64,000 bases of DNA from Amoebophrya sp. A120 (lineage: Eukaryota; Protista; Dinoflagellata). Below are positions 18,201 to 58,239 of this stretch, one piece after another. The stretch spans positions 2,643,373-2,707,372 of the forward strand of contig CAJINV010000009.1 of the NCBI GenBank assembly GCA_905178155.1, written 5' to 3'. Both the position numbers and the translations under genes were made by a program. Within the stretch, counting starts at the first letter, position 1, and each line of letters opens with the position of its first letter. The notes beneath the pieces are model-generated. The model ran no database searches, had not been told where the DNA came from, and was given only the letters and a program-made list of their open reading frames with translations.

Positions 18201-21200
18201 GGGTCCGATGCGCTTCTGTGCTGCACGACTTGCACAACGTTCTCCGTGCTGGAATTCTGGGAGGAGGAATTTGTTTTCGGCGTATTCTTCTGCTGGACCT
18301 GGGTCAACATCGTGTTAGACTTGTTAGAACTTGCTTGTTTCTTTCTGCTTGCAATTGCTGCCGTCCCGGAGGTGCCTTGTTGGCTACCGCCACGACCACC
18401 TCCGCCGGCTCCTGGTGCCTCGTCTGCAAATGAAGATTCTCCTCCAGCAACATCTTGTGCTGCTGTTGTAACACCAGAAGCCACAATGTCCTCCTCCTGA
18501 TCTTTCTTTGCCTCCTTCCATTTGCACCTCCGTCCGAACAGAATCAGCACCAGCTCGTGCTCACACCCCGCTTGCTGCTTATGCAATACAAATTTCTCGT
18601 ACACGACGTACAAAATGCATCACACATAATTTCGCCATACTCAGAATGTAACACTTGTCATGCTGATTAGCATCGCAGGCAAGGTCTGTTATGCAGACTC
18701 CATATTTTTTGTATACTGTATGAGAGCGTTTGAGCAATTAATTTTTCCGCAATTCAAAAAATCGCGTATTTAAGATTAAGGTATCTGTCAATCCCCACGG
18801 TATGATCGTTTTTGCAGTCGCCGTTGCGGAGTGGAAAAGCTGGTGTCTCCGGTGCCGGTTTTGGGTGAGTTATGCAATGAGATAAATAGGGAGATTCCAA
18901 CTTGAGCTAGCTAATTTAGGTATCTTGGTATGTATGTTTTTGATGTAGATATTGATGGCGTTAGGATACGCATTTAGATTAGACCAAGCGACGACCCTTT
19001 GAAGACCGGCGATTTGACGTCGCGGGGCCCCGTGCACGGGGCCCCGCGACGTCTTGGCCACCGTCTTACCTGGCTACCTAGGAAGCAACCTCCAGAAGGC
19101 AGCTGAATAGCGGCCGCAGTTCTTGATTTGTCATGCATAAATACTTCTATCTTAATTAGCTAGCTCAAGTTGGAATCTCCCGTATTTGACAACCATACCT
19201 TACAGCCGGATCACCAAACAACCGGATCATCAGGCTTCGACATCACCAGCGTGGCGGCGGCGATAAAAGAAACAAAATGGAATGATTTTATTACAAAAAT
19301 CTATTTTTTGAATTGCGGAAAAATTAATTGCTCAAACGCTCTCATATACTGTACGTCGTGCACAACGGGAAATTTACTGTGGATACTTCTGCCGTTCGAT
19401 GCACTCTTTAAGAAACCGCAGCATGTGGTGCAGGATCATCTCACCAGAGGAACTGTATTCGTAGATCTCTTTCGAGACTTCGATGAACATGTAGATCTCC
19501 GCGGCGGTCGACCGGAAGGAGATTTCTGTCTTCTCCGTCACAAGACCGGTTAGCAACTTCGGCGGTTTGGGCTTCGGCTTCGCTGCTATTCCATCTTGAT
19601 GCGACTCGGTCGGTGATGGTTGAGCGGACACGATATTGGACGAGGTCCCAGCGGGAGATGAAGCTGCCACCACGGCGGCGGCTCCCCCGACGACCGGGGA
19701 TGGCATCGGTGGCGTTCCACCGCCAGCTGAAGTGGTTGATCCCTGCCCGGATTTTGACTTCGAAGCAAGGGCTGCTCTGATTCCAGTCTGAAGATCCTTC
19801 GTGTTAGAAGTACTACCATCATTTTGCGCAGAATTATCTTCCACGTCCATGATCGCCACACTTGTCGCCAGCGCGTGCTCCACCAAGTAATCGGACTCTG
19901 GCGGGTTAAATCCCTGGTAGAAAACCGGTGCGATACCGGATTGCTGGAGATCTAGTAGCGATTTCTGGTAGTACCAAATATCGCGCTTGCTCATCTGCCG
20001 TCTCGCAGTTAGCGTGATTTCCAAATTCTCCAGAGTGTACTTCTTCTCCTCCTCCAATGGGATCAAAATCAGTTCCAACGAGTTTTCTGACAGTTGTAAA
20101 GTGGAGAGATTTAGATTCAGGAAGTTCTGTTGCTGTTGCTGCATAAACTCAATGTCCTTCGCATTCGGGTTGGCAACATTCGTTTGCGAAAACATCTATG
20201 CATTGCAAATATGCCTGGGTCTGGAATAAACTTGTGATGCTAATTTATGAATTGTGGGGTCACTATAATAGGCAGCCACGCATGAGAAGTTTCTGGGCCC
20301 CCTTGTGTTCTTTCGCTTTCCGCATGACAAACTACATTTTTGCATGACACGCAAGAGGCTCTTTTCGTGCTCACGCATTACAGCTTCACTAGTGATGAGA
20401 GACACGCATGACAAATAACTTGCATTCTTCCAGAACCAGACACATTTGCATTGGATAACATCCCTCCCGGCGCGCCCGACGGGTTCACGACAATCGTGTT
20501 TGCGCCGGGGATATCAAATGCAAATATGTCTGGGTCTGGAAAGTTGCAACTTGTGATGCTGCCTTTGGATTCTACACAGAATCTGTTTCGCGTGACCAGC
20601 AAAAGAGGTCCGCTTTTTGTTACACGGAGAGGGCATTTCTCATGCAGTACAGGCATCACAAAGCCCTCAACAAATCTGTGATGCTAGGGCATGCATCAGA
20701 GACATCAGAGGTCATGCTAAATATGCATTACAAGCGCTGTTTTTTTTCCAGACCCAGACATTTTTGCATTTAATAGGGGAGTTGGTTGACAATCCCCTGC
20801 GGCCCGATCGCGATTGAGCTGTACCTGGCGTTTAGACTGTATCAAGTGCAAAAGTGTCTGGGTCTGGAAGATTCTGAGACTTGTCACGCACGTTTTGCAT
20901 GAGCCTTGATGTCTGTGACGCATGCCCTAGCATCACAGATTTTTTGAGGGCTTCTTGATGCCTATTCCGCATGACAAATGCCCTCTCGTCCGCGGAGCAA
21001 AAAACGCGTTCCCTTTGCTGCTCATGCAATACAGATTTTTTTGGAATCCAAATGCAGCATCACAAGTTGCCTTCTTCCAGACCCAGACACTTTTGCATTT
21101 GATAGACTGTCGTAGCTGGCATTGTTTTTGTTGTCCGGATTCCCGAGGTCCTGGATCCGGTTCTTTTTCATGACCTGCTCGAAATTCCGATACAAAAATT

Positions 21201-24200
21201 TCCAATCAAAAGCCGCCTGGGCGAGTTTGGTGTCGATGGAAATCGCCGCGTTGTTGTTGGACTTAGGGAAGGAGGTGATGAGATTGAAGTTCGCGTAGGA
21301 ATAGGGGTCGGTGGAAATCAAGACGGTGGATGGTTGGTTTTGTTGTGATGTAGAAGTCAAAGAGGTCGAAGCGGCTCCAGAGCCCAGGCCCCCGCTAGTG
21401 CTGGAAGAAGTTGCACCACCGGTAGTTGTACTACCAAAAGAACTGCTCGGCGGCCCGCCTCCAGGACCACCATATCCCACGAAAAAAGTGTTACAGTTAC
21501 ACATTTGTAGCCAATTCAGCAACTGCATGAGAGAGAAAACTTGTAATGCAGAAATCCTACGGGAAAACAGCTATGAAACGAGGCTCCTATGCATATCCGG
21601 CATGACAGAGCTTGTCTGTCTTGCTTGGCCTGCAACACAATGCGTAACTGTAACACTTTTTTCTCACGATACACCACCGTACAAATTCACTGCCGAGTCC
21701 ACCATCATTTCTGGTTCTGCGCGGATATGGAAGCGTCAGGATTGAAATCGTCAAAGTTGAAATAATTTCTCATGCATAAAATGCAAGGCATGAAGTGCCT
21801 GTCTTGCCGGGATGGCAAGTGAGGCCGACTGTCAGCCTGTTTAGGGTTTGAAATAGAGCTGCTAAAGTAGCATGGCAAAAGCCTTCTTCTATCCCTAAAC
21901 AGCATGACAAACCGGATTTAGACGGTGCCGAAATTTGTCATGCGCCGCTTGGAAATTGGGCTTCCAACTGGTATCGATTTTCTGCATTACAACTTACTTC
22001 AATTTTGACAAAGATTTCAAACCTGACACTTCCATAGCGGAACAGCAAATAGTTGTCCCGGTCTGCTTCAAACTGCAAGCGGTACAACCGTATGCATTGC
22101 AAAAGTATCGTAAGTACAAATTGCATTACAAATCTTATCAGAAAGAAAAATGGACTTTGTAATGCTAATTCAGGTAAAAAGGTAGGTTTGTCATGCAAGA
22201 TTGCAATTAGTACGAGTACGATACTTTTGCACAGGATAAACCGACCGACTTTCAACGATCGGATTCTGGTTTTGTCAAAAAGCAGGGACTGGCGGTACCC
22301 GGTTGGTAGGGTAGAGTCTTTAGAAACGCTCGGACCTCCAGAGGCTGCAGAAGAAAGCAGAGCGCCGGCGCTGCTAGTGGTAGCCGAGGACGAAGCAACA
22401 TTCGCGGCAGCGGAAGCCGTATCAAATGTAAAAGTGTCTGGGTCTGGAAGAATGCAAGATTTGTGACGCAGCTTTTCCATGACCCATGAGGTCTGGAATG
22501 CGAGACCCAGCGTGACAGATTTTTTGAGGTCTCTATCATGCCTTTCCTGCATGAGAAACTCCCTCTCAACTTGGTCAAAAGCGGACAGCTTTTGGTACTC
22601 ACGCAACACATCATCATCATGTAGTGGACACCCGCTCCCAGCGCCACAGGTCAAGGATCCCCTCCCCGGGGGGTGGGCGAGGAAGCACTTTCGGCGACCT
22701 CAACATACAAAAGCCGAGCGCTACCACGGCAAGTCGCCCCAATACAAGTGCCAACCAGTCGGGAGCTACCCACCACACCTGATCAGCACAACCCGGCCAG
22801 CTAGCCGAGCGCGACAGCCCAACATACAGAACGATCCAGGACCCGACCCATAATTTTACGCCATAAGTTTTTGCTCTCACGGAAGAGACGACGTACCCCT
22901 TTGGGCTAAGGGGCGAGACTCTCCCTTAAGCCGCAACCCCACCCGGACAGGGGAGGCTGGACCATTTGTGCCTTACCTGCGGCACGGACGAAAAAGGCAA
23001 GGGCCGCGGACCACAGACGTCAAACCATTGGCCAGTTGTTTGTCACTGCTGACTGGCAACCCACCTGGGGCACAGCGACAACTTAAAGGTTTAGTTTGTG
23101 CGTGGCAGTCTTAGTGCAACTACTTGACTTATTCTGCAACAGAAGCAAAGGGGGAGAGGGGGGGCGGGGGTCTTACGCCAGAGTCGCGACGGGACTTACC
23201 TGGACGTAGGGTGCCTGGCAATCCCCTACTAACCCCATAACCCTTGCGCGCCCGTAACTTCGTCTTCGTCAGCACCGCGGCCAGGAATTTCGACACACCA
23301 TTTCCAGCATGGCGGCCGCCGTTTGTACGAAGTCCCACACGCAACTCCGTGGCCAGAAAGTCCGATACGAATCTTTCACGCCATGTCCATGGCGGCGGTA
23401 AGACTGCGCGTCGTGCCTGGTTAGCTCGTGATAGTCGTGCTGGAGTTGCTCGTGGTAGTCGTGCTGGTGTGCTGCAGTTGCTCGTGGTAGTCGTGCTGGT
23501 GTGCTGCAGTTGCTCGTGGTAGTCGTGCTGGTGTGCTGCAGTTGCTCGCGGTAGTCGTGCTGGTTAGCGTGACAGTCGAGGACGAAGTTGGAAATTGTGG
23601 CTCTCGAAACCGTCGAAAGTGTTTCAGAAAACGTGTAAATCTCGACCGGTCGGGCGCGCTTCCTTTTGGTTTGGCGTCGTAGTACTCGATGCCGCTGCAC
23701 TCGCAAAAGTTGCCTTCAGTCCTAGTCTAGCATGACAAGTTGGACACTGCAAGTTAGCGAAGTTTGTACATGTACAGGAAATTTACCTTGCATAAGGGGC
23801 ACTCCGTGTCTATGATCGCGATAGGGAGGAGCGTCGCGCAGAAGAGTTTCACGAAGCCCGTTCACTTCATGACCTCCAAATCGTAGCCGTAGGATTGAAA
23901 TTCTTGCAGCAGCGACTGTGAATTTCGGGCGCGGAAGGGCGTTTGCTTGTTAAACCGCCAGGTCCACACCGAGAAAATCCAGAGATTGGCGATCGCTTGC
24001 GCCAGGACGACTAGGATGGCGCCCAACGCACGGCTGTCTTCCTTCGGAATCTGCATCTTGGGCAAAACGCCGTCCTCTTCCCCGATCAGGAAGAGAGGGA
24101 GGACGCAGGCCATGTTGAGGAATGAATGTTGGAGCTAAAAAGGATAGAAGTGCACAACTTCAAGAACTTCTAGGTTGTAGACCGAATAGCGCCGGTGTCT

Positions 24201-25392
24201 GACCAAATGTAGATGGTCCTACTTGGAAAAAAATGAAAAAAAAAAACAATGGAAGCTACACAACAGACGACACTATCACTAACCTTGCTCCTCGTGCGCC
24301 TGTCTCATTAGTGTTGAGGCAGAAAATTATAAATCACAATGCTTGAGCCAAAAATAAATCACACAGATTTTTTTTGCATCATTCGGATTTAGCATGACAA
24401 GTTCTAATCTTCCAGACCCAGACATTTTTACATTTGATAAGCCGATGACGGGCCGCCCTGTGCGCCGCCGGAGGAGGTGGAAGAGGAGGCAGCTGCACCT
24501 GGAGTTGTTTGTAATGCAAGAATACTATAAAGGTCTTACTGCAAACTTGTCGCGCTCATCATGCTGATCGATGATGCTCAAGCTCATGCAAAGAAATACA
24601 TATAAGGCATCGCGTTTAATTGGTCTAATGGTAATGCGCTCCTCAGCGGCAGGAGAATTACAATTATCTCTGTTCTTGTTTCGTACCTGCCCCACCAGTA
24701 ACACCTCTTCCTCCCTTGCCGTCCTTTTTCGACGCCGGGTCGTCTTCATCATCTTCTGCTATCCGGTCTTTCGCGTAAACCTCGTGCGTGGTAAATTTGT
24801 GCGCCCGCGGGGTCGCAGCTTCTTCCCCCGTGGGCCCGGCAATTTGTTTCGCCGCCGCGGTTTGGTTGAACCGAGCGGGGTATGCATTGCAAATACGTCC
24901 GGGTCTGGAAACTTGTAATGCTGGGTTGGGAATGGTGAATGCTCTGCAATGCACAGCCAAGCACGAGAGGTTGTATCTGCGCTGCTTAGTGCTGTTGCAG
25001 ATTCTGCATGGCAGGCTGCGTTTTTGCATCACAAGGAAAAGAGTATCTTCTTGGACGCGCATCACAAGTTCTTCAGTCATGCCAGACAAGCATGACAAAC
25101 CTCGCATCCACCTTCCAGACCACCCAGACATAGATATTTGCATTTCATACGGCGATGGTGATTTGAGGACGGTTGAAACGACCCATAATTCCTTATGAAG
25201 TACTACTGGATATGCCAAATGAATGTAGTTCGTTGATGTTCTTGGTCGGTGACCTACGGGGGGGGTCAGGAAGCAAGGTATAGGAAACAAATACTGCTGG
25301 AATCCTTACATAGAAATACGAATTACAAGCAGTGCCACGGCAAGAGAAGTGAAAGACTTGCTGTGACGCTGACGCGTAACATCAATACCCAT
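1..25392 (-). CDS. DEPDC5: DEPDC5/IML1/SEA1-like GATOR1 subunit; multi-exon gene (32 introners plus canonical introns 24499-24686 and 25254-25388), 3' end beyond window start
   Basis: Joined exons give LVTEKTEISFRSTAAEIYMFIEVSKEIYEY..HELVLILFGR, LLEALNLALDAFEHHALDRSLTITGQGIFVLS..LICFRDRPLHRVPL and QLFEDLVGTRLVCGMQL, recognisable IML1/DEPDC5 motifs in the expected order. Frame checked across several junctions (981, 10800, 13421, 13696, 22420, 24499). Start ATG at 25392 is inferred. Confidence 0.8.
981..1118. mobile_element. Introner family B
   Basis: TAT..TGCAAAAGTATCG TIR; DR CTTCG both sides; removal gives APK|KKPSIL in frame. Confidence 0.9.
1652..1890. mobile_element. Introner family C
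   Basis: TATGGGGTTCTCAA/TTGAGAACGCCATA; DR TGGCA. Confidence 0.9.
1960..2216. mobile_element. Introner family A (left end degenerate, AGT)
   Basis: TIR; DR CAGAA. Confidence 0.85.
2253..2510. mobile_element. Introner family A
   Basis: TIR; DR CCCGT. Confidence 0.9.
3166..3488. mobile_element. Introner family I
   Basis: GGAAAAATCCCCCCTCCCCATA TIR; DR AGGAG/AGTAG. Confidence 0.85.
3714..3859. mobile_element. Introner family B
   Basis: TIR; DR ATTCG. Confidence 0.9.
3903..4150. mobile_element. Introner family C
   Basis: TIR; DR TGCTC. Confidence 0.9.
4222..4484. mobile_element. Introner family A
   Basis: TIR; DR TGCGC. Confidence 0.9.
5091..5396. mobile_element. Introner family J (single copy here)
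   Basis: TATGAAGGCCTCAG/CTGAGGCTTTCATA TIR; DR GCAGC/ACAGC. Confidence 0.85.
5714..5862. mobile_element. Introner family B
   Basis: TIR; DR CCTCC. Confidence 0.9.
5924..6208. mobile_element. Introner family F
   Basis: TATCCTGTGTAAAAACGTCCCCACCCCA TIR; DR TGCGA. Confidence 0.9.
6812..6961. mobile_element. Introner family B
   Basis: TIR; DR TCAGT. Confidence 0.9.
7369..7577. mobile_element. Introner family E
   Basis: GAAAAAACTGTTTCACTGTGA TIR; DR CAGCC. Confidence 0.9.
8265..8522. mobile_element. Introner family A
   Basis: TIR; DR TTGCT. Confidence 0.9.
9806..10014. mobile_element. Introner family E
   Basis: TIR; DR TTGTT. Confidence 0.9.
10127..10276. mobile_element. Introner family B
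   Basis: TIR; DR TCACA. Confidence 0.9.
10800..11034. mobile_element. Introner family C
   Basis: TIR; DR TCCAC; frame restored (VRV|EQHQAG). Confidence 0.9.
13421..13575. mobile_element. Introner family B
   Basis: TIR; DR GTTGT. Confidence 0.9.
13696..13804. mobile_element. Introner family D
   Basis: TATCCAGGAAAAAACACCCATCCCCATCCA TIR; DR CCGAC. Confidence 0.9.
16124..16385. mobile_element. Introner family A (opposite orientation to 2253 copy)
   Basis: TIR; DR GGGAA. Confidence 0.9.
17130..17344. mobile_element. Introner family E
   Basis: TIR; DR AATGT. Confidence 0.9.
17393..17501. mobile_element. Introner family D
   Basis: TIR; DR TTCCG/TCCCG. Confidence 0.88.
18580..19385. mobile_element. 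Introner family K carrying a nested element
   Basis: TATGCAATACAAATTTC/GAAATTTACTGTGGATA; DR CTGCT/CTTCT. Confidence 0.85.
18719..19346. mobile_element. Nested TAT..ATA TIR element (44-bp perfect TIR)
   Basis: TATGAGAGCGTTTGAGCAATTAATTTTTCCGCAATTCAAAAAAT at both ends (inverted); DR TACTG. Confidence 0.9.
20197..20457. mobile_element. Introner family A
   Basis: TIR; DR ACATC. Confidence 0.9.
20512..20775. mobile_element. Introner family A
   Basis: TIR; DR GGGGA. Confidence 0.9.
20840..21104. mobile_element. Introner family A
   Basis: TIR; DR GACTG. Confidence 0.9.
21473..21671. mobile_element. Introner family E
   Basis: TIR; DR CACCA. Confidence 0.9.
21726..22036. mobile_element. Introner family G
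   Basis: TATGGAAGCGTCAGGATTGAAATCGTCAAAGTTGAA TIR; DR GCGGA. Confidence 0.9.
22091..22238. mobile_element. Introner family B
   Basis: TIR; DR AACCG. Confidence 0.9.
23425..23563. repeat. 32-bp tandem repeat (GTTGCTCGTGGTAGTCGTGCTGGTGTGCTGCA), about 3 full plus partial copies
   Basis: Direct reading. Confidence 0.85.
23862..24113 (-). CDS. Possible 83-aa ORF with one hydrophobic segment inside the retroposed insert
   Basis: ATG-initiated ORF downstream of the relict SL; no recognisable family. Confidence 0.3.
   Translation of the reverse strand: MACVLPLFLIGEEDGVLPKMQIPKEDSRALGAILVVLAQAIANLWIFSVWTWRFNKQTPFRARNSQSLLQEFQSYGYDLEVMK
24342..24355 (-). other. Relict dinoflagellate spliced-leader (DinoSL) 3' segment
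   Basis: ATTTTTGGCTCAAG; 12-nt exact match to the 3' end of DinoSL (DCCGTAGCCATTTTGGCTCAAG), at the insertion boundary. Confidence 0.75.
24499..24686 (-). other. Canonical GT-AG intron
   Basis: GCAG|GTACG ... CTCCAG|GTGC; frame preserved. Confidence 0.75.
24881..25149. mobile_element. Introner family A
   Basis: TIR; DR CGGGG/CGGCG. Confidence 0.88.
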
Positions 25393-26300: not shown

Positions 26301-26513
26301 TCACCTGCATTGGTCACCTGCATTGGTCATATGCATTGATCATATGCATTGGTCATATGCATTGGTCATATGCATTGGTCATATGCATTGGTCATATGCA
26401 TTGGTCATATGCATTGGTCATATGCATTGGTCATATGCATTGGTCATATGCATTGGTCATATGCATTGGTCATATGCATTGGTCATATGCATTGGTCATA
26501 TGCATCGATCATA
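26301..26513. repeat. 13-bp minisatellite (TGCATTGGTCATA)n, about 16 copies, intergenic
   Basis: Direct reading. Confidence 0.95.
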
Positions 26514-26948
26514 TCAAAATTTCAGTGTCTGTATCTCCTCATCTTCAACAGCGAGGACATCGTGCGTCGTCGTCGTCGTCGTCCCGTGGTGCACGACAGC
26601 ACAAATCATGAACCAGTTGTCTTCTTTTTCTCGTCATAGTCGAATTCGTATCTTCTGAAAAATTGATTACGTACACTGCTAGCAGTGAACAACACGTGGA
26701 GCTGATGAATCTTTGCACGTCTACTTCCCCCGAAAAAGAAGCATCTGGCCGAGGAGCAGTTTCCTCATTATCAAAATCTAAATCAAACAGTAACAGAATA
26801 TAATGGTGACGATGATTTTTATACGCATCGTAACTAGTATGAATTATCAGCCAGCATTTGCATCTGTTTCTGCTCTTCCTCTTGTGGAAGGAACAAAGGG
26901 CAAGTAGGTAGAGGAAAAGCAAAGCCTTTCTTGGTGCACTAAGTGGGT

Positions 26949-36409: not shown

Positions 36410-39400
36410 CTATCTCGACGCAACGCGGTCGTTTGTTCTTCTACTTAGTCTTCCCATGGTCACGTGCATGTTCGCAATGTTTATCTTATGTCTGGAAAAT
36501 CCGCGCAGACTCCCGTCCGCAATGGCGCCAAAGCGTAGAGCTGAGGTGCGGACCTTCGGAAATTGGAAAATAGGCGATTTCTCGAGGGTCTCGTGTATCT
36601 CTGTTGAAGCAGAAGCGGTAGCGCCGTCAGGTGTAAGTGTAGTTGCTCTTGGGCTTGGCTCTTGATTTTTCACATTCACTGATGCGTTGATGCCATTCGG
36701 CGTCCAAACAGTAGCTGCTTGCCTTTGCGTCTCAAGTGGCTGTGTGGACGCCTCGACGTCTGGTATGGTAGTATCGGGGGCTCGTCCAGATAGCACCTCT
36801 AAACCTCCTCTGTCCCCGAGGCTCAAAACGGTAACCGCAGGAGAACTACTCGCACTCGCTGCTACTGGGGACGAGGCTGTTGTATCTGTATTGCGGCCCG
36901 CTAATACTTTTGGTTGAAAAAAATCTCCGATGCCGGAAACCTTTCGCGAAGATGGCACTAGTTGTCCCACCTGTTCTATTTGTTTGAGCTTCGCGTCGCT
37001 GCTTTTGGGAGCGGATTCTTGTTGTGGAGATGTAGTCGTGGCCCCGATGGTCTCGTCCTGCCCTGAAACGCTACCCGTTTTCGCTTTCTTGAAACACTCA
37101 TTCAGATACAGCCACGATGTGGTTTGGCCTGCTTGAAACGGACCACCAACATCTTCTCTGCCAGTTGCTGCACCAGCAGCAGCCACAGCCGCGGCCGGCT
37201 GAACATTTACGACGCCAAACCGCAGTGGTAAAAATATTTGCTTGACTACTTGTTCATCTTGTTCACGCGTTTTCATGTTCCCTTGACCTTGTGCAGCTGG
37301 TCCTCCACCTGGGTCGACCTCGACAAGGCACTATCAAATGTAAAAATGTCTGGGTCTGGAAGAATGCAAGATTTGTGACGCAGGTTTTTCATGGCCCATG
37401 AGGTCTGGAATGCGAGACCCAGCATGACAGATTCTTTGAGGTCTCTATCATGCCTTTCCTGCATGAGAAACCCCCCCTCAACTTGGTCAAAAGTGGACAG
37501 CTTTTGGCACTCACGCAACACAGATTTTTGCATCATTTAGATTTAGCATGACAAGTTCTAATCTTCCAGACCCAGACATTTTTACGGTTGCTAGGCACTC
37601 TATCGTGTTGGCCTGCTTCTGTTTGTCCACAACTCGAAGTAAGAGAACGATTTCAGTCGTGATTCTAGATCGGTAGTGGCTGTTAGTGCTAGCGGGACCA
37701 CGAAGAGGCACATCACCAGCATGATCTATGTGCACTTTGTCCTCACAGAGCCAAACCGTGAACCCCTCGATATTGCTGTACACCGCGTTCTTCCCACTGT
37801 TTTCTATCGTGAGGAAAAATCCCCCCTCCCCATACCGAAGCGACCTACTTCTGAAAATTTGCGATGCTGATCTGTGGCCACAAATCGTCTCTGTATTGCA
37901 AGAAGGCCAATCCAGAGACCCCGCCGCATTATACAGACGGTTTGTGATGCTATGGAGCCTACAGAGTACACATTTGCCGTGCTATGCGCCTACGAGAAAA
38001 CCCCTCTAGGTAGGCTTGGTATGGGCCTGCAGTCCCATACTGCAAGACAGACCTGATTTATTTGTGTACGCAATAAATCCAGCATGAGAAACTTCCTTTT
38101 GATATGGGGAGGGGGAATTTTTCCTCTCGATATATTCGGAAAAAACTTCTCTTTTCGACAACACGATGGAGCAGGTCCGGGCCGGCTTCGCGTCCGTGAG
38201 TGTGGATTTCACCAGTTCCGAGTTCATCTGCGTCTTTTGCTGCGGGGTTAGGTGGTTTTGAGCCTGAACGACCACTGCTGGACCGCCGTGGTCGTGGTTT
38301 TTTTCGGTTCCTCCAGCTCCTTGTGAGATGGCTTGATTTTTTTCCTCTCCTGGATTATACTTTGCTTTTTCACTCGTTCTACTTCCCATATAATCCTTCT
38401 GCAGCATCGTCCGCGCGCCGGTTTTGCCGTCGGTGACCACCTGCACTAAATTCACCTCAGCGTTGCGGTGGTAGAGACCCATGTTTATTCCGTCTTCAGT
38501 AGTAGAAGAGCTAGAGCTTGTTTTTGAGCTACTTCTTCTTGCCGCATTGATATTTTGGTACTCGACGATCCGTTGCTTGAGTCTCTCTACGAAAGAACTC
38601 GATCCAGAGGAATTCCTGGGTGGAGCATCAGCACTTCCTTCCACTGCATGAGCTGCTGCTGATGCAGTCGGCTTCCCCCACGCGACTTCCTCGACCACAG
38701 TATGAGAGTGCACAACTCCCCCTCCCCCTCATTTGTAATGCAAAATACCCAATCCACCCTTTGCCTCTTGGCACTGTTTGCATGACAAGTTCTGGTCGCC
38801 CAAATAGCACTAGACTCAAGTGAAAATCTGTCATGCAAAACCGGCACTCTTGCTGATGCTTGTATTGCCGTTCATGCTACACAAATGAGGGGGAGGGGGA
38901 GTTGTGCACTGTTATACACAGCATCGGAAAACGTGAACTCCGGACTGGAAGAAAACTTCTCAACCGTCAAAACCGCTTCAAAATGTTCTAATCGGTCCTC
39001 ATCGGAGTATGGATTGCAAATATGTCTGGGTCCGGAAACTTGTAATGCTAAAAGTGAATGATAGACGCACACGCACTGCAATACGCAGCTATCGCGATGC
39101 ATGAACTAAAATAATTTGGTTGCCATGTCTTACGTGTTCCGCATGGCGAACTGCGTTTTTGCATGACAGGCAAGAGGACTTTGTCGTGCCTATACAACGC
39201 AGATTCTCGAGTCATGCCAGACAAGCCTGACAAACTTGCATTCTTCCAGACCCAGACATTTTTGCTTTTGATACAGAGGTCCCATTGTCAATGTCAAACT
39301 CGACCACGTCGTGATTTGTTGTTCCCTCTCCTTGCGTTGTTTGTGTTTCCAAACCAAGGATTTCATCGCTGTTTCTTTCAGCAACATTAAACGTCGGTGG

Positions 39401-43794: not shown

Positions 43795-46733
43795 TATTTT
43801 GGTTTGTCGCAATTATCGTTTCAACATGAGCTTCACACATGAAGGAGCACAGCACCCACTCTGAATGAAAAAGAAAAATCTTTTTATCGGGGTTCTTCAT
43901 CGTTCACACACAGCCGAATACCATGCTAAATTTATGGGAGCCAATGCCAAGCTCAATACTTAAAAAAATTCAAGGCAAATCAATGCGGCAAGCTTTGCAG
44001 AACCAGAAGCGAAAAGTTGAAGTGTAGTAACTGTAACGGTAACCGCATCTAGTAAGAAGTTTTAGTTTATAGATACGTAGATCCTCCATCTGCTTGATGA
44101 TCTTCCCCTTCTCTTGTTCTGGAGAAAAAAAAATGATGCTGGTCGTCCGTGTTGATCTGGGTTCCGATGCGGATCATATTACGCAAAAGCCGCTGAAAAA
44201 ATCTCAAACGATTACCTCCACTATAAACGAAACACAAAAGCTCACGCAAGAGATAGAAAAAGCGGTCATGTGCGGACTGCAAGAAGCCAAGCCCTCCTTG
44301 TTAGAAGGTACATCGCCCCGAGACAACTACAAGAAAAGATCACGACCGACATACGCATAGTATCCAGATGCAACTAATGAAGCGCAAGCTACGTGAAAAA
44401 GAAAGCAGGTCCACGAACGCCGCCTGTTTGCAGTAAGTTGCAACAGGACACACGCACAAAAAAAGCGAAAGCAATATAGGGAGATGAGAAGACGCACTCG
44501 CTCACTCTCATGCGAGAGGTGCAGAAGGCACGCCATCCCCGAGCCCACCGCGGGTGGGTGGACAAACGTGGCTGATTTCTCATTTTATTAATAATGAGCG
44601 ACAACGCGCCGTGAAAATGGCACATCGGTCCTTGTTGCGCAGGAGAGCGAGGACAACGACAGACGGCTGGCACGGGGGCGCCTGGCACACAGGGGTGCTT
44701 GCGTTTGTTGCCGGCCGCCGGGCTGTACGAATGGGCCTGATTAAAAGGCCGACGAGTGGGGCGCCGAAAGTCTGCAACCAAAAGCCAGGAAGGTCAGGCA
44801 ACCTTGCGCGCCAGCCTGCCTCCCTCCGCGGCGCCCCGAACTTGCAAGCAAGCGACCCGAAGCAAGGAAGAAACCCGAGACCGGGGCGACCTGCGCCCCA
44901 TGCGCGTGCCTGCTTACGAGGCTGCCAAGCAGTGAAGGGCGGGCAAAGGCTGCCCACCCACACAGACACCACCCAAAAAGGGCAACGGCGCGCCCCCTTC
45001 CCCAAGGAGTGGAACCCAACGCGGCCGCCCCCTGGATCGGCGGGCGGCGCCGCCTGCGTTTCACGCTGGCGCGCGCCACCCAGCGGCGGGCGGGCCTGCC
45101 AGCCTACGGCCAGACTGGCGCCGGGCTCTGCTACGGACAACCAACCCAAGGCGCCGCGGGCGGGCGCGGGCAGGGAGCAACCGGGGCGCGCTCCTGCCTT
45201 GCGGAGTCTGTGCGAACAGAACAGGACGAGGCGCCGCCTGCGCTTTCCTTATTCTGCAAGCAGGCCGCCGAGCTTGCTCGAGCTCCTCCCTGGCCTCCTC
45301 CTTCGCCACAAGGCCGGGGCGAGGCGGCGCAAACTGCCCGGCGGGAAGCTTGGCGTGCGGGGCAATGGCGCCGCGCATCCGGCCGGAGGCGGGGGAAACT
45401 CCCGAACGGTGGGCCCTGGTAAGTGCCGCGCCCTGGCCGGCCGCTTTGGCGCCCTGCCTTCTTGCCAATCATGCAGGCCGGGATCTTTTTCCCCCCCCCG
45501 TCCCCGTCGCGATACCCGCTGCGGGCGGCGCCGGGCTACTTCTGCGGCCACGCAGCATTCTGGGCGGCGCCAGCGGACGGGCAGAGTGAGGGCGCCCCAC
45601 CCGGCCGGGCAGCCCGCGGGGGCTCCCAAATCAGAACGCCGGCGCGCCTCTTTCCCAGGCACCACCAGAACGCGGCCGAAACGAGACACCTGCGCACCAC
45701 TGGCGTCCTGGAGTGCTCCGCAGCCTTGAGCCGCTGCGCCGCAGCGCGCTCAAAGTGTTCGACAGCTGCACCAAGCGCAGCCCGCTCCGCCCGCGGGCTT
45801 CGTAGAGGGATCGAACTCCGCTCCCGTCTCGGCTTGTCCGAACGTCCGCGCGCACCGGTCGAATAGCTCGGCCATCACCCCGGACGTGAGGCGCCCCCGC
45901 GTCAGCTTTCCGGAGGACATGGCGCGCACAATTACCGGGCGCCGCCGAGTGCATGGCCTAAATGCGGACCCGTCTGGTGGCTGGAGTCTCAGGCGGGGGG
46001 TCCGTCTCGTTGTGCTTCTTTGCTGAGGACCAAAGTCTCACCGGTGAGTCGTAGCCCACTCATCTAATGTGAAGTTGAAGAAGAACACAAATGTAATTAT
46101 ATCAAGCAGTAACGACAGGGACCTAACCCAACATGCTTCGTTGCGCTTCCTATACTGCTTCACAATCGTTTTTGCTTCTCGTATGATTCTTCATCAACTG
46201 CCAGTCCAGTACTTAGAGCCAAAATTTCCCGTGTCTAAGAATCGAAGAGAGAGTTGTAGCTTGCGTTTCTTTTGCAGAAATCTTAAAGATCATACTCATA
46301 GGCCTTAAGGCTTTTCATCACTTATCACTTTTTCTTTTTGCACTTGATCGCTGTGTAACATGTACTTTTTTATCTTCGCAAAAACGACATCGACATCGCT
46401 AGTACTAAGCTTGTTTACGCAAAGCACCAGGGTAACTTTGGATCCACGTGTTCGACGATAAACGACGCCAGCGTGTCTATCTGGCACTAAACCGCGGTCT
46501 ACTTGCACTTATTTGCTGCGTACTTCGCTAAAAAAAAGAGAGATCAGTGTGCATGAAATTTTGTTTTGAAAAAAAACCGGGCTACTCGTCACTAGCTGCA
46601 TTTCAAACCTAGCTGCTAAACCAAAGACTGTTGTTACTGTTTATAGACACAACAAGCACAAGCTACTTCGTCGCAAAAGCTCACACTTAAGGATGATGCC
46701 AGTACCGGTTTCACTAAACCGAAAACCACCTCC

Positions 46734-49700
46734 TCAATCCTGATGCCGTTTCAACGGCACCGCATCTACTTCCCCAGCAGCAGAGACAGCCGCTTCGCCT
46801 CCTCCACCAGTTTCCCTTTCTCCACTGCCCCGCTGCTGTTGCTCTCTACTCGACGACGTCGCAGACGGTCCATTGGTAGAGCGAGGCTGCGCTCCTGCTG
46901 CGCCAGCAGCTGTATTTTGCGCAGTCGCTGTTCCTGTTGTAGTGGTTGTTGTACTTGTTCCACCAGCAAGCGGCTGAGCAACGGGATTTGCACTGCTCCT
47001 TTCCTCTCCACCAACATCGTTCCTTCCCGCACTACTTCTCAAGCAGTCCTGAAACATGATCTTCGGCAACACCTTCTGCTTAAAAAACGCGATCAGATTC
47101 TCCCGACTGGTCGTGTTCAAATCTTTAGTATTTCCATGCTTCTCTTTGTCTTTCTCCCCAGCATGTTGATCACTGTTGCCGGTTTTGTTCCCTCTCTGAT
47201 TACTATTTTGTTGAAAGAACGCGGCAGCCCCGGGGAAGTTTTTGAAATTTTGCATTCCGAAGTTCTGCACCCGGTCGAGCATGAGTTTTTTGTACTTGTT
47301 CAGTTTCGTATCCTGGAAAAAACAGCCATCCCCATTCAGTTTTTGCATGACAAATTAATAGTGGATTTTATGCATGTTTTGCATGACAAATTGGATGGGG
47401 ATGGGTGTTTTTTCCTGGATATTTCGACGTCGCTTTCTTGTCTTTTTTGTTCAAGTCATCATTCCTCCCACCGTTCATCGCGTTTTCCAACTGCTGGTCT
47501 TGCTGTTGAACGAACGTGCGGTTGAGTATCCACGAAAAACAAAAAAACACCCATAGGCATTCCCATCGATTTTCTGCATGGCAGACACGAGCACTAGTGC
47601 ACGTTTTGCATGACAAATTGAATGGGGCGGATCATGGGTCTTTTTCTGTGGGTATTGAGCCACAAATTCTCCAAACACGTTTGCTGCACTTCGGGAAGAA
47701 ACTGACCCAACACCGTGAATAGGGGGAGGACCACCACGTCGATGAACCCGAGCTGGCATTTCGGTGTGGAAGTGGACTCCCGATCGAAAAACATCGACAC
47801 CGGAAGATTCTTGTCTCGTTCGATGTCTCCCTGTCGGAAATATTCTTCCATCGTCCGGCTCACGTGAGTGAAATACAACTCCGATTTTCTCGTTGAGTTG
47901 CTGATGTCCGCCGCGTGAAGCAAAATGTTCAACAAAACCTGTTTATCCTCCGCCGACCGCGGGTCCGGAAAGGTTTCCCTCGCGGAAGCCAACTTCGTCT
48001 TAAAACTGCTCAGCTCCGCTATCCTGAGTAAAAACGTCCCCACGCCAGAGTTGTCATGCAGATTTTTTTTTTTTTGATTGGGCCCCGCTCTGTTGACGCA
48101 TATAAATTCATCACTAAAACTAGGAGGCCGGTGTGCGTTACTTAACATGTGAAGCAGTTCTACGAATTCACCTGCCTGCCGCAGCAGGTGCAGGTCAAAC
48201 AGGGCCGACACCTTTCACACAGTTAAGCAGTGCGCGCGTATGCGTGCATTTTTCATCTTGTTTTGATATTCTTACTATCTGCTCTTGTCCTCTGCTCCAG
48301 CACATTGTACTGCGCGTCTTGTTCTCGCCTCGCTTCCGTTTTCCCCCTCCTCTCCCGCGTGCGTGTCCACCGGGGCCTAGTCCCCCCCGTCCTGTAGCTC
48401 GAGCGGCTCGCCGATGTCCCTCGATTGCATCCGCGCGGGGCTCGGGCTCGTGGCTGTTTTCCGTCATATCTCCTTATCATGACTCCCCACTTTGCCGCGC
48501 TGACTCCGCGCCCGCTTTCGTTTTTCATGATGTTTTCTTCTAAGCTTCGTGTCTGTTAGCGTGGGTTAGTCTGTAGAGTAAAAGTAAAGTAAAGCGATGC
48601 GGAAATCTTCAAGAGGTTACGCCTGATTTAAACTCGCGCTAGCATCTTGTTCCTATTTCTAATCCCCGTCTTTTCCCCACAACCCACGACCAGCCTCTGC
48701 TGGAAAAAAAGAAGTTCCCTGGTGTGTTTTTTAATAGTCGCAGCGGGTGGGGGGAGACCGCATTGGTCTCCCCCCGCACGCTGCTAGTCTGTTGTAGTAT
48801 CTGCTTTGTATTTCTACATGAGCTAGTGCTGTTGTGACGCATCATTTGAATTGCTTTACGAAGTGCTCTGAAAAAACGAAGTGCTCTGAAAAAACGAAGT
48901 GCTCTGAAAAAAACGAAGTGCTCTGAAAAAAAACGAAGTGCTCATTGTTTTACTCAACAGCATAACAATGGATTATGAATCTGAAATTTTTCGCACGAAG
49001 AAGCGGAAGCCGTCACCAGAAGCGCAGCTAATAAGTAACGACAGGAACATTTGTAATGCGCATCGCGAGGAGAGGCCTTTTTAGTCGTGTTTTGGAATTT
49101 GTAATGCTGTTTTAAACAGGATGAGCAGATGGATTCCTGATGCAGCTGGCCTTGCGAACCTGCACTACACTACGAGTTGCAACTTGTGATGCGTGACCCC
49201 CAAAAGTTCTAGGCTTGTGTTGCAAAATCCCCATCTTGACTCTGGTGTGGGGATGCTTTTACTCAGGATATCCGCGAAGTGCGCGCTGGTATCGGTCGCT
49301 AACACCATCTGGATCACGATCTTCCGGGCCTCGGCGTATTGTTTCTCATTCAGTGTCGCGAAGATGTCGTACTCCGGGGAATTTTCCAACATGAGGTAGA
49401 AGGCCGCAGCAACGTGGTGGTTCTCCAGAATCGCGGAATCGTTGTAGCGTAACGCGATCGGGTGTTTCGTCCTGACCAGAAACGCGTTGGACACGCCTGG
49501 ATGTTGGTAATCGTGAATTGCCGCCGCGAACAAGCCGGCTAAAACCTCATGCGGGGACAAAATTGGGTCGATCGAGCTGTTTTGGTTCTGCAGCATCAAG
49601 TTTTTGTCGGTTCCCTGCCCGCCGCCGCCAACGTTAGTCGCGTTCGTGGCCATTTTTGACACAAAGCTGTTTTCCCTCAAGTCCGACATGAAACTTGAAC

Positions 49701-52700
49701 TGCCGTGCAACCCCCCGCCGCCGTAGTGGCCGTAACTGGCGTTATTCGCGTTCATACCGCCCAAAACCCAGAGCAGCATGCAGTGGAAACCTTGCAAGAC
49801 GTCGCACGCGTGTAAAGCGTTGTGGTACGGGTTTTCCGCCACGTGACCACCGGAAATCGCCTTCATCAACAGAAAACAGGGATCCAACGTCATCTCCAAG
49901 TGCGCGCAAAGCTCGTGGAAAATCACCAGTTCACAGAAAACTAACGGGAGGCAATCTAAATGCGGGTTGGCGAAGGGGATGCGGTTTGATGTGATGAGGT
50001 TTTGGTGGTGTTGCTGATGATTATGTCGTGGTCCTGTTGCTGCAACGCCGGGTTTTGATGCTCCTGATGCTGCACCTCCATGATCGCTGCTGCCGCTACT
50101 CGTCTATGAACTGCAAAACTATCGCACTGACGCGTGTAAATGCATTACAAATTTCATCCTCAGCATGAGAAAGAAAATTTGTAATGCGCATTGACCTTAG
50201 CAAAAGGATTTGCAAGGCATGAGCATGATTGCAAGACGAGTACGATACTCTGGCACAGGATATCACCCCAGCGAAGGCGAAAACGTCAAAAGAGTCCCAG
50301 TTGTGTAAGTCGTGCTCCAAAATCCGTAGGATTTTCTGGTAGATCTTCGTCTTCTGGTACAGGATGTAGTCTTCCTTTTGCAGAAACCCCATGTCCTGCC
50401 AGATATGATTTTCCGCTTCTGCGGCGGTATCAGCGTCCTCGTATTGGTTGTTGTTCCTCCCACTTCCATAGTACTGACCGGCACCAGAACCTGCTCCGCC
50501 TCCACCCACTCCCAAAAACCCGCTGCAGTCGATCTCAACCTCGGTTTCCAATATCTCGATCAGCCTTTTCCTCGCCTGCTCTAAATTTTCTGCGTGCTCC
50601 TTCTTTTTACTCTGCCCGATGAGAAATTTTTCCAATTCCGAATCAATCGCGCCGAAGGAGCTGCTGTTAAATTGGTTGTCTTATGGATTGCAAATATGTC
50701 TGGGTCTGGAAAGTTGGAACTTGTCATGCAGATTTTCCATCATCATCATCATGTAGTGGACACCCACTCCCAGCGCCACAGGTCAAGGATCCCCTCCCCG
50801 GGGGGTGGGCGATGAGGTCCGGAATGCGGGACTTAGCATGACAGACTCTGCGAGGGCTCTGACATGCCTATCCTGAATGACAAACTCCCTTCCAACTTGG
50901 TCAAAAGTGGACAGCTTTTGGCACTCATGCAACACAGATTTTTGCATGCTTGAGATTTACCATGACAAGTTGCCACCTTCCAGACAGACATATTTGCAAT
51001 TGATATATCTTCCGCGGACACGATTTTTACCCACTCGGAAATCTCCTGCTCTAACAATAGATTTTGGTTGTTCGCACTCGCGTTGTTTTTCTGGCCGGAA
51101 TTGTAGTCATTCCCGTCGACGGAAATGCTGTACAGCTTATTCGATCCAACCACATCCATCGACCACGTGATCTCCTCCTTCAAACTGTTCGGAATTACCT
51201 TCATCGCCCGAACTTCCCGAAAAATCTCCAAAACCCGCTCGACTGGGGAGGAGAAGGAAATGGAATTAGAGTTCTTGTCCAACTGATTCCGCCCCGTTTT
51301 TCGCGTGTTGCGGTTTGCCGACGCAGTGAGTTTCCGTAACCCGTTGACCAACCGCAGCAACCGCAACAATCGCAACAGAGCCAACGTCGTGCTACTGGTC
51401 GCCTCTTCGGGGTTCGCGTACCGCTGTAGCGCGAAAACCCAGGAGATAAAAACGATCGTGAAGTCGAACAGATTCCAAAGGTCCGCGAAGTAGCTGAAAA
51501 TGGAGTTTGTCGCCGTGTGAGCGAGAAGTCGGATCACAATTTCTAGCGCGAATAAGCCGAGAAACACCGTGTCGGTGTCTTCAAACGCCATTTTTTGACT
51601 GTTGCTCAGGTAATCCTCCACCGCGATTAATGTCAGTAGGAAAATCGCATACAGGCCCAAAATGCTGTAAACGATCAAATCGAACAATTTCCACTCGACA
51701 CAGCGAATGCAGAGCTTCTGGATGATTTGCAGCGGCCCCGGGTCTTCTGGCTCCTGGTCTGGTCCATTTGGGTTGTAGTCGTATCAAATGTAAAAATGTC
51801 TGGGTCTGGAAGATTGTCAGACTTGTCATGCATATTTTGCATGGCCCCGGATGGCTGTAATGCATGGCCTAGCATCACATATTTCTAGAAGGCTTCCTGA
51901 TGCCTATTCTGCATGAGAAATGCCCTCTCTGTGTAGACCAAACTGGACTCCTCTTGCTGGTCATGCAATACAGATTTTTTTCGAATCCGAAGACAGCATG
52001 ACAAGTTGCAATCTTCCAGACCCAGACATTTTTACAATCCATAAGTCAGGGGATGATGCTATGCCAGCAGCTCCGTACTGCAACTGGTACATCTCATTTG
52101 CCATCAACTGTAAAAATGTCTGGGTCTGGAAGACTCATGGTGCTTTTGCATGACACAGAAGATCTGGCATGGAAGCGCTAGCATCACAGGTTTGGAGAAG
52201 CTTCCGCAATGGCAAATCCGCATGACAAGTGCCCCATTTTGGTGACAGAAAGGGGGCAGCTTTTGCTGCTTGTGCATGAGAGATTTTTATGTGTTGTAAA
52301 ATGCGCATCACAAGGTGCATTTCTCCAGACCCAGACATATTTGCATTCCATATTTGCATCCAACTCCGTCATGCCGGCCATCATTGCGAATTGTAGGTTG
52401 TTGGTCTGAAAATACCGCCTCTCCTCTTCCGCCGTGAAAACCGGGACTTGCCCGAACCGACGAATCAAGCAGTACCAAATGAGGGTTTGCGCGATGAGAT
52501 TTCGGATTTGGTCAAAGATGACTAAGACGAACCAGTATGAACTGCAAATATGTCTGGGTCTGGAAATCAGTGATGCTGAATTGAGCATGATTGAAGCGCT
52601 TGCAACGGCTGCCAGGCATGACAAGTTTTGGAGACGCCTGCTGATGCCTACCACGCATGACAAACTGCGTTTTTGTATGACAAAGCAAGCTCCGCTTTTG

Positions 52701-56275: not shown

Positions 56276-58239
56276 AATTGATGTTTTTGAATTTTTTGGT
56301 ACGGTCGACTACCAAGAGTTTCTTTCTTCAACTACTCATGTGGTGCTCTCTCGTTATTTTAGAGGAAGTGGCACGACCACACCGACTGCGTATACCACTC
56401 GTTCCGCCTGGGTGAAATGATCCTCCGTCAACTACGTGCTTTATAATTCACTTCAAAAAGCTCCCCTGCTCTAGCACGAGCCGGAACCGCCTCAAGAACC
56501 TCGATCCCCCTCATCTTCAAGTGCGAACATGAGCGACTCGCACCATGCGTCCTCGTCAGCTTGTTGACGAAGGAAGAAAAGCGCGCGGACTACTTGCAGC
56601 TTCGCCGCCACCCCCCACCTCCGCGGTCGCTCGCGCGGCGCTCCACAAAAGCCATGGGCTGCGTGTGAGCGAGCATTGATTTCGCGCCACAGCAGGTGGG
56701 GCGAGCGGTGCGTGTAAAGCCGGGCAAACGAAAACACAACCCCAATCATTCAGCGACAATGCGTGACACGCGGTAGGCGTGTAGCTACAATAACGAAACA
56801 GCAGCCACACACCGCTGCATCAATAAGCTTAAGCTTAACGCGAGGAGAAGCACGGCGCGGGCGCACTATTTAGGGCGCGCGCGCCTTCTTTTTAGTACCT
56901 GCTGCGGAAAGCACATAGAACCCCCCCGCGGCGCCACAGGCAGCCGCCGGGAGTTGCCGGCGCCGGGGCTCGACACGGCCGAACGAACTGCCCCAAGAGC
57001 TCCCGCGGAGAGCTTGCCCACACCGTGGACACAACACAACAGGCGCGGCGCGCCAAAACCAAGAAAGCAAGGGAGTGCGCCGCCAACAGACACACCGGGG
57101 CGAAAGGTGATAGGGCGGGCCCGGGCGCCGCCCCCCTCCCGCGAAGAGGGGGCCGCGTCCGCCCGACCTGCGCGGAGGGTTGGCGGGCGCCACGAAGGCG
57201 GGGCCGCCCGGGGGCAGGAAGCGAACAGCGCGGCCGCCCCCCCGGGCCCGCCCGCCTCCACGGCGCGGCCCGCGCAACAAAGAGCAGGGGGCGCAACCGG
57301 GAGGGGACGCCGTCCCCGGCGGCGGCGCGCTTGCGGCGCTCCGCGGGGTAGACTGCGCCGCCCGGGGCCCGTTTGGTCGATGGCGCGCAGCTGCCAGCCT
57401 GGCGGCCTTCTTCGCCGTTCCCATACCCATCCCCGCCACGCTTGAAGGCTGCCCAAATAAAAAACGGCCGGGCCGACCCGCCTCGCAGGCCCCCTGCTTT
57501 GTTCGCATAAGCCTGCGCGAGTGGTCGCGCTCGCAATGCCGGCCGGGCGCCAGTGCCTGGCCGGGTAGCGAACGCGCTAAGCCCGCCCGCCTGCCCGATG
57601 GGCGCAACAAGCAACCGCCCCCCGCTGGCCCGAAAGCTGTCGCCCGAGTGCCCGCAACTGAAAGCGCCAGGCCGCCGCCCTTTTCGTGCATCGCGGCAAA
57701 ATTCGCGCGGGCATTTCGAGGCGGGTCGCTGGGGTATCCCTCCACTGCGAGCCTACCGCCCTGCATCTGGGCCCATTCCTGTGCCCGCGCCTGTGGCTGC
57801 TGGCGAAGGCGGCGCACCAAGGTCGTCGGGCGACGCGGCGCCCCCGCGATGCGCGCGCGATCCCTCACAAGTAGCCCCGGCCCCAGCCCGCGTCTGTCCA
57901 GTCTCTTCCGCTAATGCTGTGCATCAGTCTGGCGAAGTTGTGCAGCGCTTTTTGTTTGTTCCTGGGTGCTGATCTCCCGGAGGAGCAGCAGCTTGACGGC
58001 ACTGTGGCCGCGCGAACACATCATAATCTTCACACGCGCTGCTTTGTATATTGACAGAGCCAAGGCTAGCAAAAAAACATGTGTCCGCAATCGTCTTGAA
58101 TCTTCAAATTCGAACGACAGGAAACACGGATGCTATCGTCCTTCGGCTTTAATATCGGAGCTCAGAGTGAAGATAAAAAAATTCGAAACAAACAAGCGGT
58201 TGCTATCGCTAACATCCTCCCCATTTTCAATTTATATCT

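Follow-up and report, generated by a model that had tools for sequence, protein, structure and literature searches.

The window, a 64,000-nt stretch of a contig of Amoebophrya sp. A120, is gene-dense, with minus-strand genes that carry IML1, phosphodiesterase, ion-transport and FkbM domains. A strict script recovered 45 TAT...ATA inverted-repeat elements with 5-bp direct repeats from the window. Two inverted-repeat elements, at 48020-49270 (1251 bp) and 18719-19346 (628 bp), are unusually long and may hold further nested inserts. The 9-mer GCATGACAA occurs 82 times, on both strands of the window and across different introner families, and is a shared internal motif. Elsewhere, a 13-bp unit is repeated in 16 copies at 26306-26514 (96% matches), and two GC-rich (63%) intergenic islands, at 44500-46000 and 56600-57900, gave no Pfam match in the scanned frames and bear no likeness to the element described here.

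One introner of family A interrupts an exon of a minus-strand IML1/DEPDC5-like gene, whose IML1 domain lies downstream. The repeats of this host introner start with TAT, and 31 of the 32 nt of its TIRs are paired; TAT-starting TIRs, a 3-5-bp direct repeat and genomic repetition, all found here, are the criteria for an Amoebophrya introner. Once the host introner and six others are removed, with one direct repeat kept each, the frame is open from the upstream exon into the IML1-domain exon. In the raw RNA run X10, matches are confined to the host introner.

A 1.75-kb insert (22611-24360, minus strand) splits this 265-bp TIR introner at a 5-bp duplication, ACACA. The 5′ third of the insert is a dead copy of part of a DoxX-like gene. 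The other two-thirds, on the 3′ side, are assigned to a family of repeats tailed by (TGA)n. The features of the locus, together with a second copy of the 3′ end in the window, are as follows.

22420-24439, no strand assigned: host TIR introner of family A, 265 bp without the insert, with the direct repeat AGCCG on both sides
22606-22610, plus strand: tail-end copy of the target-site duplication ACACA, from the sequence and the sibling alignment
22611-23276, minus strand: 3′ core of the repeat family, non-coding, 88-99% identical to other copies, with the (TGA)n tail at 22611-22620
23437-23564, minus strand: tandem array of four 32-bp units, grown from the end of the module in the next line, with one unit in locus L008
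23538-23727, minus strand: module common to the insert and L008, 80% over 197 nt, without codon-position bias
23701-23794, minus strand: retained 5′ half of the parent's second introner, about 90 bp, of which the last ~27 bp overlap the start of the element
23795-24113, minus strand: codons 1-106 of the DoxX-like protein P0001, 100 of 106 identical, with a premature TGA at 23862-23864 that is TGG in the parent
23834-23838, minus strand: lone copy of the 5-bp direct repeat of an introner present in parent-type DNA contigs and absent from the insert, with loose ends of X1/X2 contigs before 23834 and behind 23838
24114-24341, minus strand: 5′ untranslated region of the DoxX-like gene as captured, bearing short tandem duplications specific to the insert
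24342-24353, minus strand: spliced-leader remnant, the last 12 nt of DinoSL (TTTTGGCTCAAG, exact match)
24354-24360, minus strand: seven additional bases at the 5′ end, of which the first five repeat the target flank in inverted form
24361-24365, plus strand: leader-end copy of the target-site duplication ACACA, from the sequence and the sibling comparison
50740-50812, minus strand: second copy of the 3′ end, 5′-truncated, in a family-A introner at ~50682-51005, with a target deletion of ~6 bp

An insert of this size, flanked by ACACA and splitting a family A element, had been proposed in a sequence-only reading of the locus, and the empty siblings bear it out. Specifically, the target pentamer is present once in five aligned intact siblings (as ACACA, or ATACA in one), and the host introner minus the insert is 94.3% identical to the sibling at 37332-37593. 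The host T-run next to the leader-end ACACA is 8 long, compared with 5 in the four closest siblings.

The 83-aa ORF to which the sequence-only reading had drawn attention is present at 24113-23862, but it is a pseudogenised DoxX fragment and not an ORF of the element. The protein closest to it is P0001, a 328-aa DoxX-like membrane protein labelled Amoebophrya sp. A120, and the parent protein is 99% identical across the ORF; the ORF was accordingly rejected as an element protein. The captured copy is dead, with W84 changed to TGA and the frame cut off at codon 107 of 328, and is not a functional retrogene. We also rejected the TGA as a reassigned codon, because parent-type contigs have TGG, and a search for a short DoxX protein of 59-189 aa found none. 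Over 533 positions, 32 differences separate the DoxX part from the expressed gene. The contigs of runs X1 and X2, which represent one sample, probably DNA and possibly the source of the window, and hence not independent of it, contain two other loci with the 5′ region of the insert, neither identical to it, and three distinct versions of the 5′ UTR. These parent-type loci are known from short contigs and 30-base loose ends alone.

Comparison with the contigs of run X5, which is RNA by software guess only, and with the DNA contigs indicates that the insert lacks the parent's first introner and retains about 90 bp of the second. In particular, parent-type coding contigs from X1 and X2 carry a TATGA...TCATA element with a 5-bp duplication between 23834 and 23838, where the insert has one copy of the five bases and nothing else of that introner. 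An X5 contig of 1935 nt is also without the first introner. At 23795, this contig continues into P0001 codons WLLIFSSG of the next exon, whereas the insert and the DNA contig continue into the second introner; the junction of introner and element is fuzzy (23701-23727). The first introner appears to have been removed from the RNA precursor of the insert, the alternative being a later introner gain in the parent. The caution that 24223-24282 looks like an unspliced intron holds in part: the GT-AG-like stretch exists, but it is the half introner at 23794-23701 that was left unprocessed. The X5 contig, which lacks both introners, runs through 24223-24282 unspliced, so the candidate was not removed in that transcript, and its GT is still there after the listed X5 differences are applied by hand. 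A zinc-finger frame reached through a GT-AG splice at 23786 was rejected, the stretch being introner sequence.

The 5′ end of the insert carries the remnant of a spliced leader. At 24342-24353, TTTTGGCTCAAG is the sole exact match in the window, with 0.03 expected from shuffles. The DinoSL 3′ end had been read here as 14 nt; it is present and unique in the window, but the match to the 22-nt DinoSL covers 12 nt; the insert has A and five Ts where DinoSL has A and four Ts. In A25 and A120, the leader determined by RNA-seq is 13 nt. The AG that ends the remnant coincides with a genomic AG of parent-type DNA, where similarity between insert and parent begins. At one of the two parent-type loci of X1/X2, about 14 of the 30 loose bases that follow 24327 are still similar to the insert, with 11 of the final 12 identical by eye; immediately past the leader-ending AG, the sequence becomes unrelated, A-rich and leaderless. 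Trans-splicing at a genomic AG predicts this end of parent similarity at the AG, without the leader. The X5 contig reads through the AG with no leader on it. A leader remnant at the 5′ end that is missing from the parent DNA is one mark of a DinoSL-tagged retrocopy, loss of parental introns being another, and the insert has such a remnant.

None of the contigs listed for X1, X2 and X5 spans the insertion junctions, and 24328-24384 has zero cover in X1 or X2 among the contigs listed. This gap, and the retention of half an introner, would be compatible with a DNA-level duplication or an assembly chimera bearing a chance leader-like motif. We regard such an origin as very improbable, in view of the exact target duplication at the empty-site pentamer, the position of the leader motif (0.03 expected in the window) at the parent's AG, the precise loss of an introner, and a second leader-headed copy, L008, in another assembly. 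The insert is confirmed as a real feature of the window.

The 3′ part of the insert belongs to a dispersed family. The last 73 bp recur at 50740-50812 with 97% identity, and when metagenome_contigs were scanned once for a 25-base tail pattern, eight more loci emerged (L001-L008), all of one accession series; their identity to the insert is 88-100% over its final 39 to 640 bases. The viral_contigs contain no match to the pattern. The nine further copies with the same tail differ in 5′ truncation and measure 39 to 2277 bp (39-576 bp and one of 2277 bp), with the length of L002 limited by the contig end. An (ATG)4-6 tail, target overlap counted, is present in 10 of 10 copies, eight of which were picked by a pattern already including the first two tail repeats. 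The TGA-repeat tail expected in the insert is there, though short, as (TGA)3 with CA before it. Repeat tails are found in L2-clade LINEs. The tails of the copies continue in register into the target by 1-3 bases. Target duplications accompany the insert (ACACA), L008 (TTGCAT) and L004 and L007 (7-8 bp), and target deletions accompany the copy at 50740, L001 and L005. In X1, the summed contig depth from 22706 to 23375 runs 3233, 2249, 599, 187 and 51, against 24-31 in unique flanks, a qualitative trend and not a copy number. The 32-bp tandem array that the sequence-only reading had listed has a copy number of 4.0.

The longest copy, L008 (L008:1440-3716, 2277 bp, TTGCAT duplication), starts with TTTTGGCTCAAG, a leader motif found in one of the eight loci, and the leader remnants of L008 and the insert both stop at a T-run. 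L008 lies in a family-A introner of a CWC25-like gene, 1-4 bases from the insertion site in the window. Two stretches of the insert recur in L008, 23538-23727 (80%) and 22611-23276 (88%), but its 5′ 750 bp are different. Those 750 bp gave no introner, Pfam or Rfam match and may represent either the native head of the element or a further captured stretch.

Target duplications or small deletions, a fixed 3′ end with a repeat tail and variable 5′ truncation characterise non-LTR elements, and all are seen in this family. Pfam gave no reverse transcriptase or endonuclease match in the insert frames, 11 L008 frames and 52 of 144 long window ORFs; the label LINE therefore rests on the insertion hallmarks, and neither the insert nor L008 qualifies as an autonomous LINE with an encoded reverse transcriptase and endonuclease. 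No coding signal was found in the family, and the 3′ core has no third-position bias. The 3′ segments have no significant fold (z -1.3 to +0.7), and no Rfam family comes near the gathering score in the insert or L008. The open frame of the insert that ends in the tail, which we presumed to resemble an endonuclease, was rejected as an endonuclease remnant for lack of Pfam support and third-position bias. Likewise, the middle segment was rejected as a second captured gene, as it has no codon bias and recurs in L008; one of its three frames, compared with proteins of 260-2000 aa, gave no match. On the minus strand of the 3′ core, strong GT-AG intron-like signals at 23199-23134 and 22976 are unspliced in retroposed sense copies; they are conserved in L008, and the acceptor is also present in L004.

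The sequence-only reading had offered two options, mobilisation of an SL-capped transcript by a LINE or a chimera of LINE and mRNA, and had staked this on a parent, a family and an SL match beyond chance. A parent gene, a 3′-end family and a non-chance SL junction have all been found, and together they select the chimera. The insert very probably arose when non-LTR machinery reverse-transcribed a trans-spliced RNA. As to the route, we think it probable that the chimera was copied from one read-through RNA by target-primed reverse transcription, as a 5′ transduction from a donor DoxX paralogue. A truncated family copy would have landed, in sense, inside the second introner of this paralogue. 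The donor transcript would have gained a spliced leader and lost the first introner, and would have ended or been primed at the element tail, still within the second introner. A non-LTR reverse transcriptase/endonuclease may then have primed on a target end pairing with the tail (CA, in register), with copying extended up to the U-run of the leader. Because the host introner retains its terminal repeats, it would be excised whole, and the copy would be tolerated. We favour 5′ transduction because it accounts for a join within an introner and in sense orientation, the placement that other copies of the family also have. In addition, the 3′ core is less than 1% from its nearest relative and the gene part is more diverged from both loci seen, which fits a two-step history.

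Alternatively, copying of the element RNA could have jumped, by template switch or RNA ligation, to an unrelated leader-headed, partly spliced DoxX pre-mRNA within its second introner, comparable to U6/L1 and mRNA/L1 chimeras. Such a jump would need no donor, and a donor locus (a DoxX paralogue with the element in its second introner) was not seen among the X1/X2 contigs listed. Introner and element resemble each other loosely over ~27 bp where they meet, in keeping with a jump, but an ordinary 5′-truncation junction at a donor locus would fit this as well. We consider the jump unlikely, given a join with the setting typical of family copies (within an introner, sense orientation), the unequal divergence of the two halves, and a depth of 44 at 23205-23473 against 19-38 in the flanks, a weak sign that the middle part may exist twice. 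The 3′ core of the insert has 99.2% identity to L006, compared with 87.6-93.4% for the other long copies, and this, like the three 5′ UTR versions in X1 and X2, would agree with an established non-autonomous chimeric element, mobilised repeatedly from a master copy elsewhere, of which the insert is a daughter. The near single-copy depth at 23510-23643 and 23912-24045 and the different 5′ part of L008 make this quite improbable.

All ten copies have at least one 40-base flank that is entirely repeated sequence, and seven have two; on the other side, L002 ends at the contig edge, L003 has 15 of 40 repeated bases and L006 has 0 of 40. The script found a host with inverted and direct repeats for six of the ten. 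Outside the copies, repeated sequence accounts for 25% of the 137.6 kb analysed, and the chance of 10 of 10 copies falling in repeats is ~3e-4 with coding DNA (40.6%) excluded, or ~1e-3 if L001, L002 and L005 are counted once. These three (L001:6792-7248, L005:6778-7165 and L002:6476-6921) occupy one CATG site of one introner family, and look independent from hosts that are 88-92% alike, element ends that are 97-100% alike and truncations that differ. Repeats contain ATG at 2.3 times and CATG at 3.9 times the density outside them, and the tails are in register with the target, so the introner bias is partly compositional. In a rough codon model, flanks score higher in the sense of the host gene for all ten copies, clearly for seven and weakly for L001, L005 and L006. 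This placement could stem from targeting, from selection or from a replication-strand bias within blocks of co-oriented genes, and these data do not tell the three apart. It is rather unlikely that the family is a parasite of introners, with active targeting to them in host-gene sense. If it were, the introner would keep the insertion out of the mRNA, a capped RNA would come from the host promoter together with leader trans-splicing, and each read-through would carry away the front half of another gene, an engine behind the orphan leader remnants of Amoebophrya. Since every sampled copy is placed in an introner, the choice between targeting and survival is open to direct test, and the 25-base tail tag allows the whole class to be counted.

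The locus combines in a single molecule a leader, a parent gene and the hallmarks of non-LTR insertion, and most likely reflects a LINE-type route of dinoflagellate gene recycling that was previously only suspected. The insert also appears to freeze a processing intermediate, with the leader on, the first introner out (one direct repeat kept) and the second still in, which bears on the splicing and loss of non-canonical introns.

Leader-tagged retrocopies, some with introns, are well known in dinoflagellates, and PMC6050394 and PMC12014239 call the mediating element unknown; PMC6050394 favours LTR Ty1/copia elements as the mediator of mRNA recycling. The 'recycled cDNAs' tagged with DinoSL, as presented in PMC6050394 (and Slamovits and Keeling 2008 via that review), resemble the insert in the leader remnant, the identifiable parent and partial intron retention. 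The insert differs from those in that its gene copy is a non-functional 5′ fragment joined to the tail of an element, and in having a target duplication, a repeat tail and non-LTR hallmarks. Retroposition was judged rare in Amoebophrya, although 713 truncated leader motifs were counted in one genome (PMC6482013). Non-LTR elements have been reported in A25 and A120, without detail.

The host element resembles the A120 introners described in PMC7789003 and PMC12130899, with TAT-starting inverted repeats, a 5-bp direct repeat and a length of 265 bp. The word 'nested' is absent from the main texts of both, and we found no paper on retroelements nested in Amoebophrya introners in the largely open-access literature searched. 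The main text of PMC12130899 attributes some A120 introners to non-LTR retrotransposons, an attribution that nested copies like the insert could partly underlie.

LINE 5′ transductions and mRNA/LINE chimeras (human L1 and SVA) likewise join a cellular 5′ part and a retroelement 3′ end in one unit with a target duplication. In contrast to these, the cellular part of the insert is trans-spliced and interrupted in a non-canonical introner, the tail is (TGA)n and not poly(A), and no coding element has been identified. In trypanosomes, the L1Tc promoter is reported to yield unspliced transcripts. The L2-clade elements ZfL2-1 and ZfL2-2, as described in PMC4245944, share duplications of ~5 bp or target truncations, 5′ truncation, and microhomology or flank-derived extra 5′ bases with the insert, a likeness of insertion features and not a clade placement by sequence comparison or reverse transcriptase. 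Taken together, the insert is a well-supported variant of known processes, leader-tagged retrocopying and LINE-type chimera formation.
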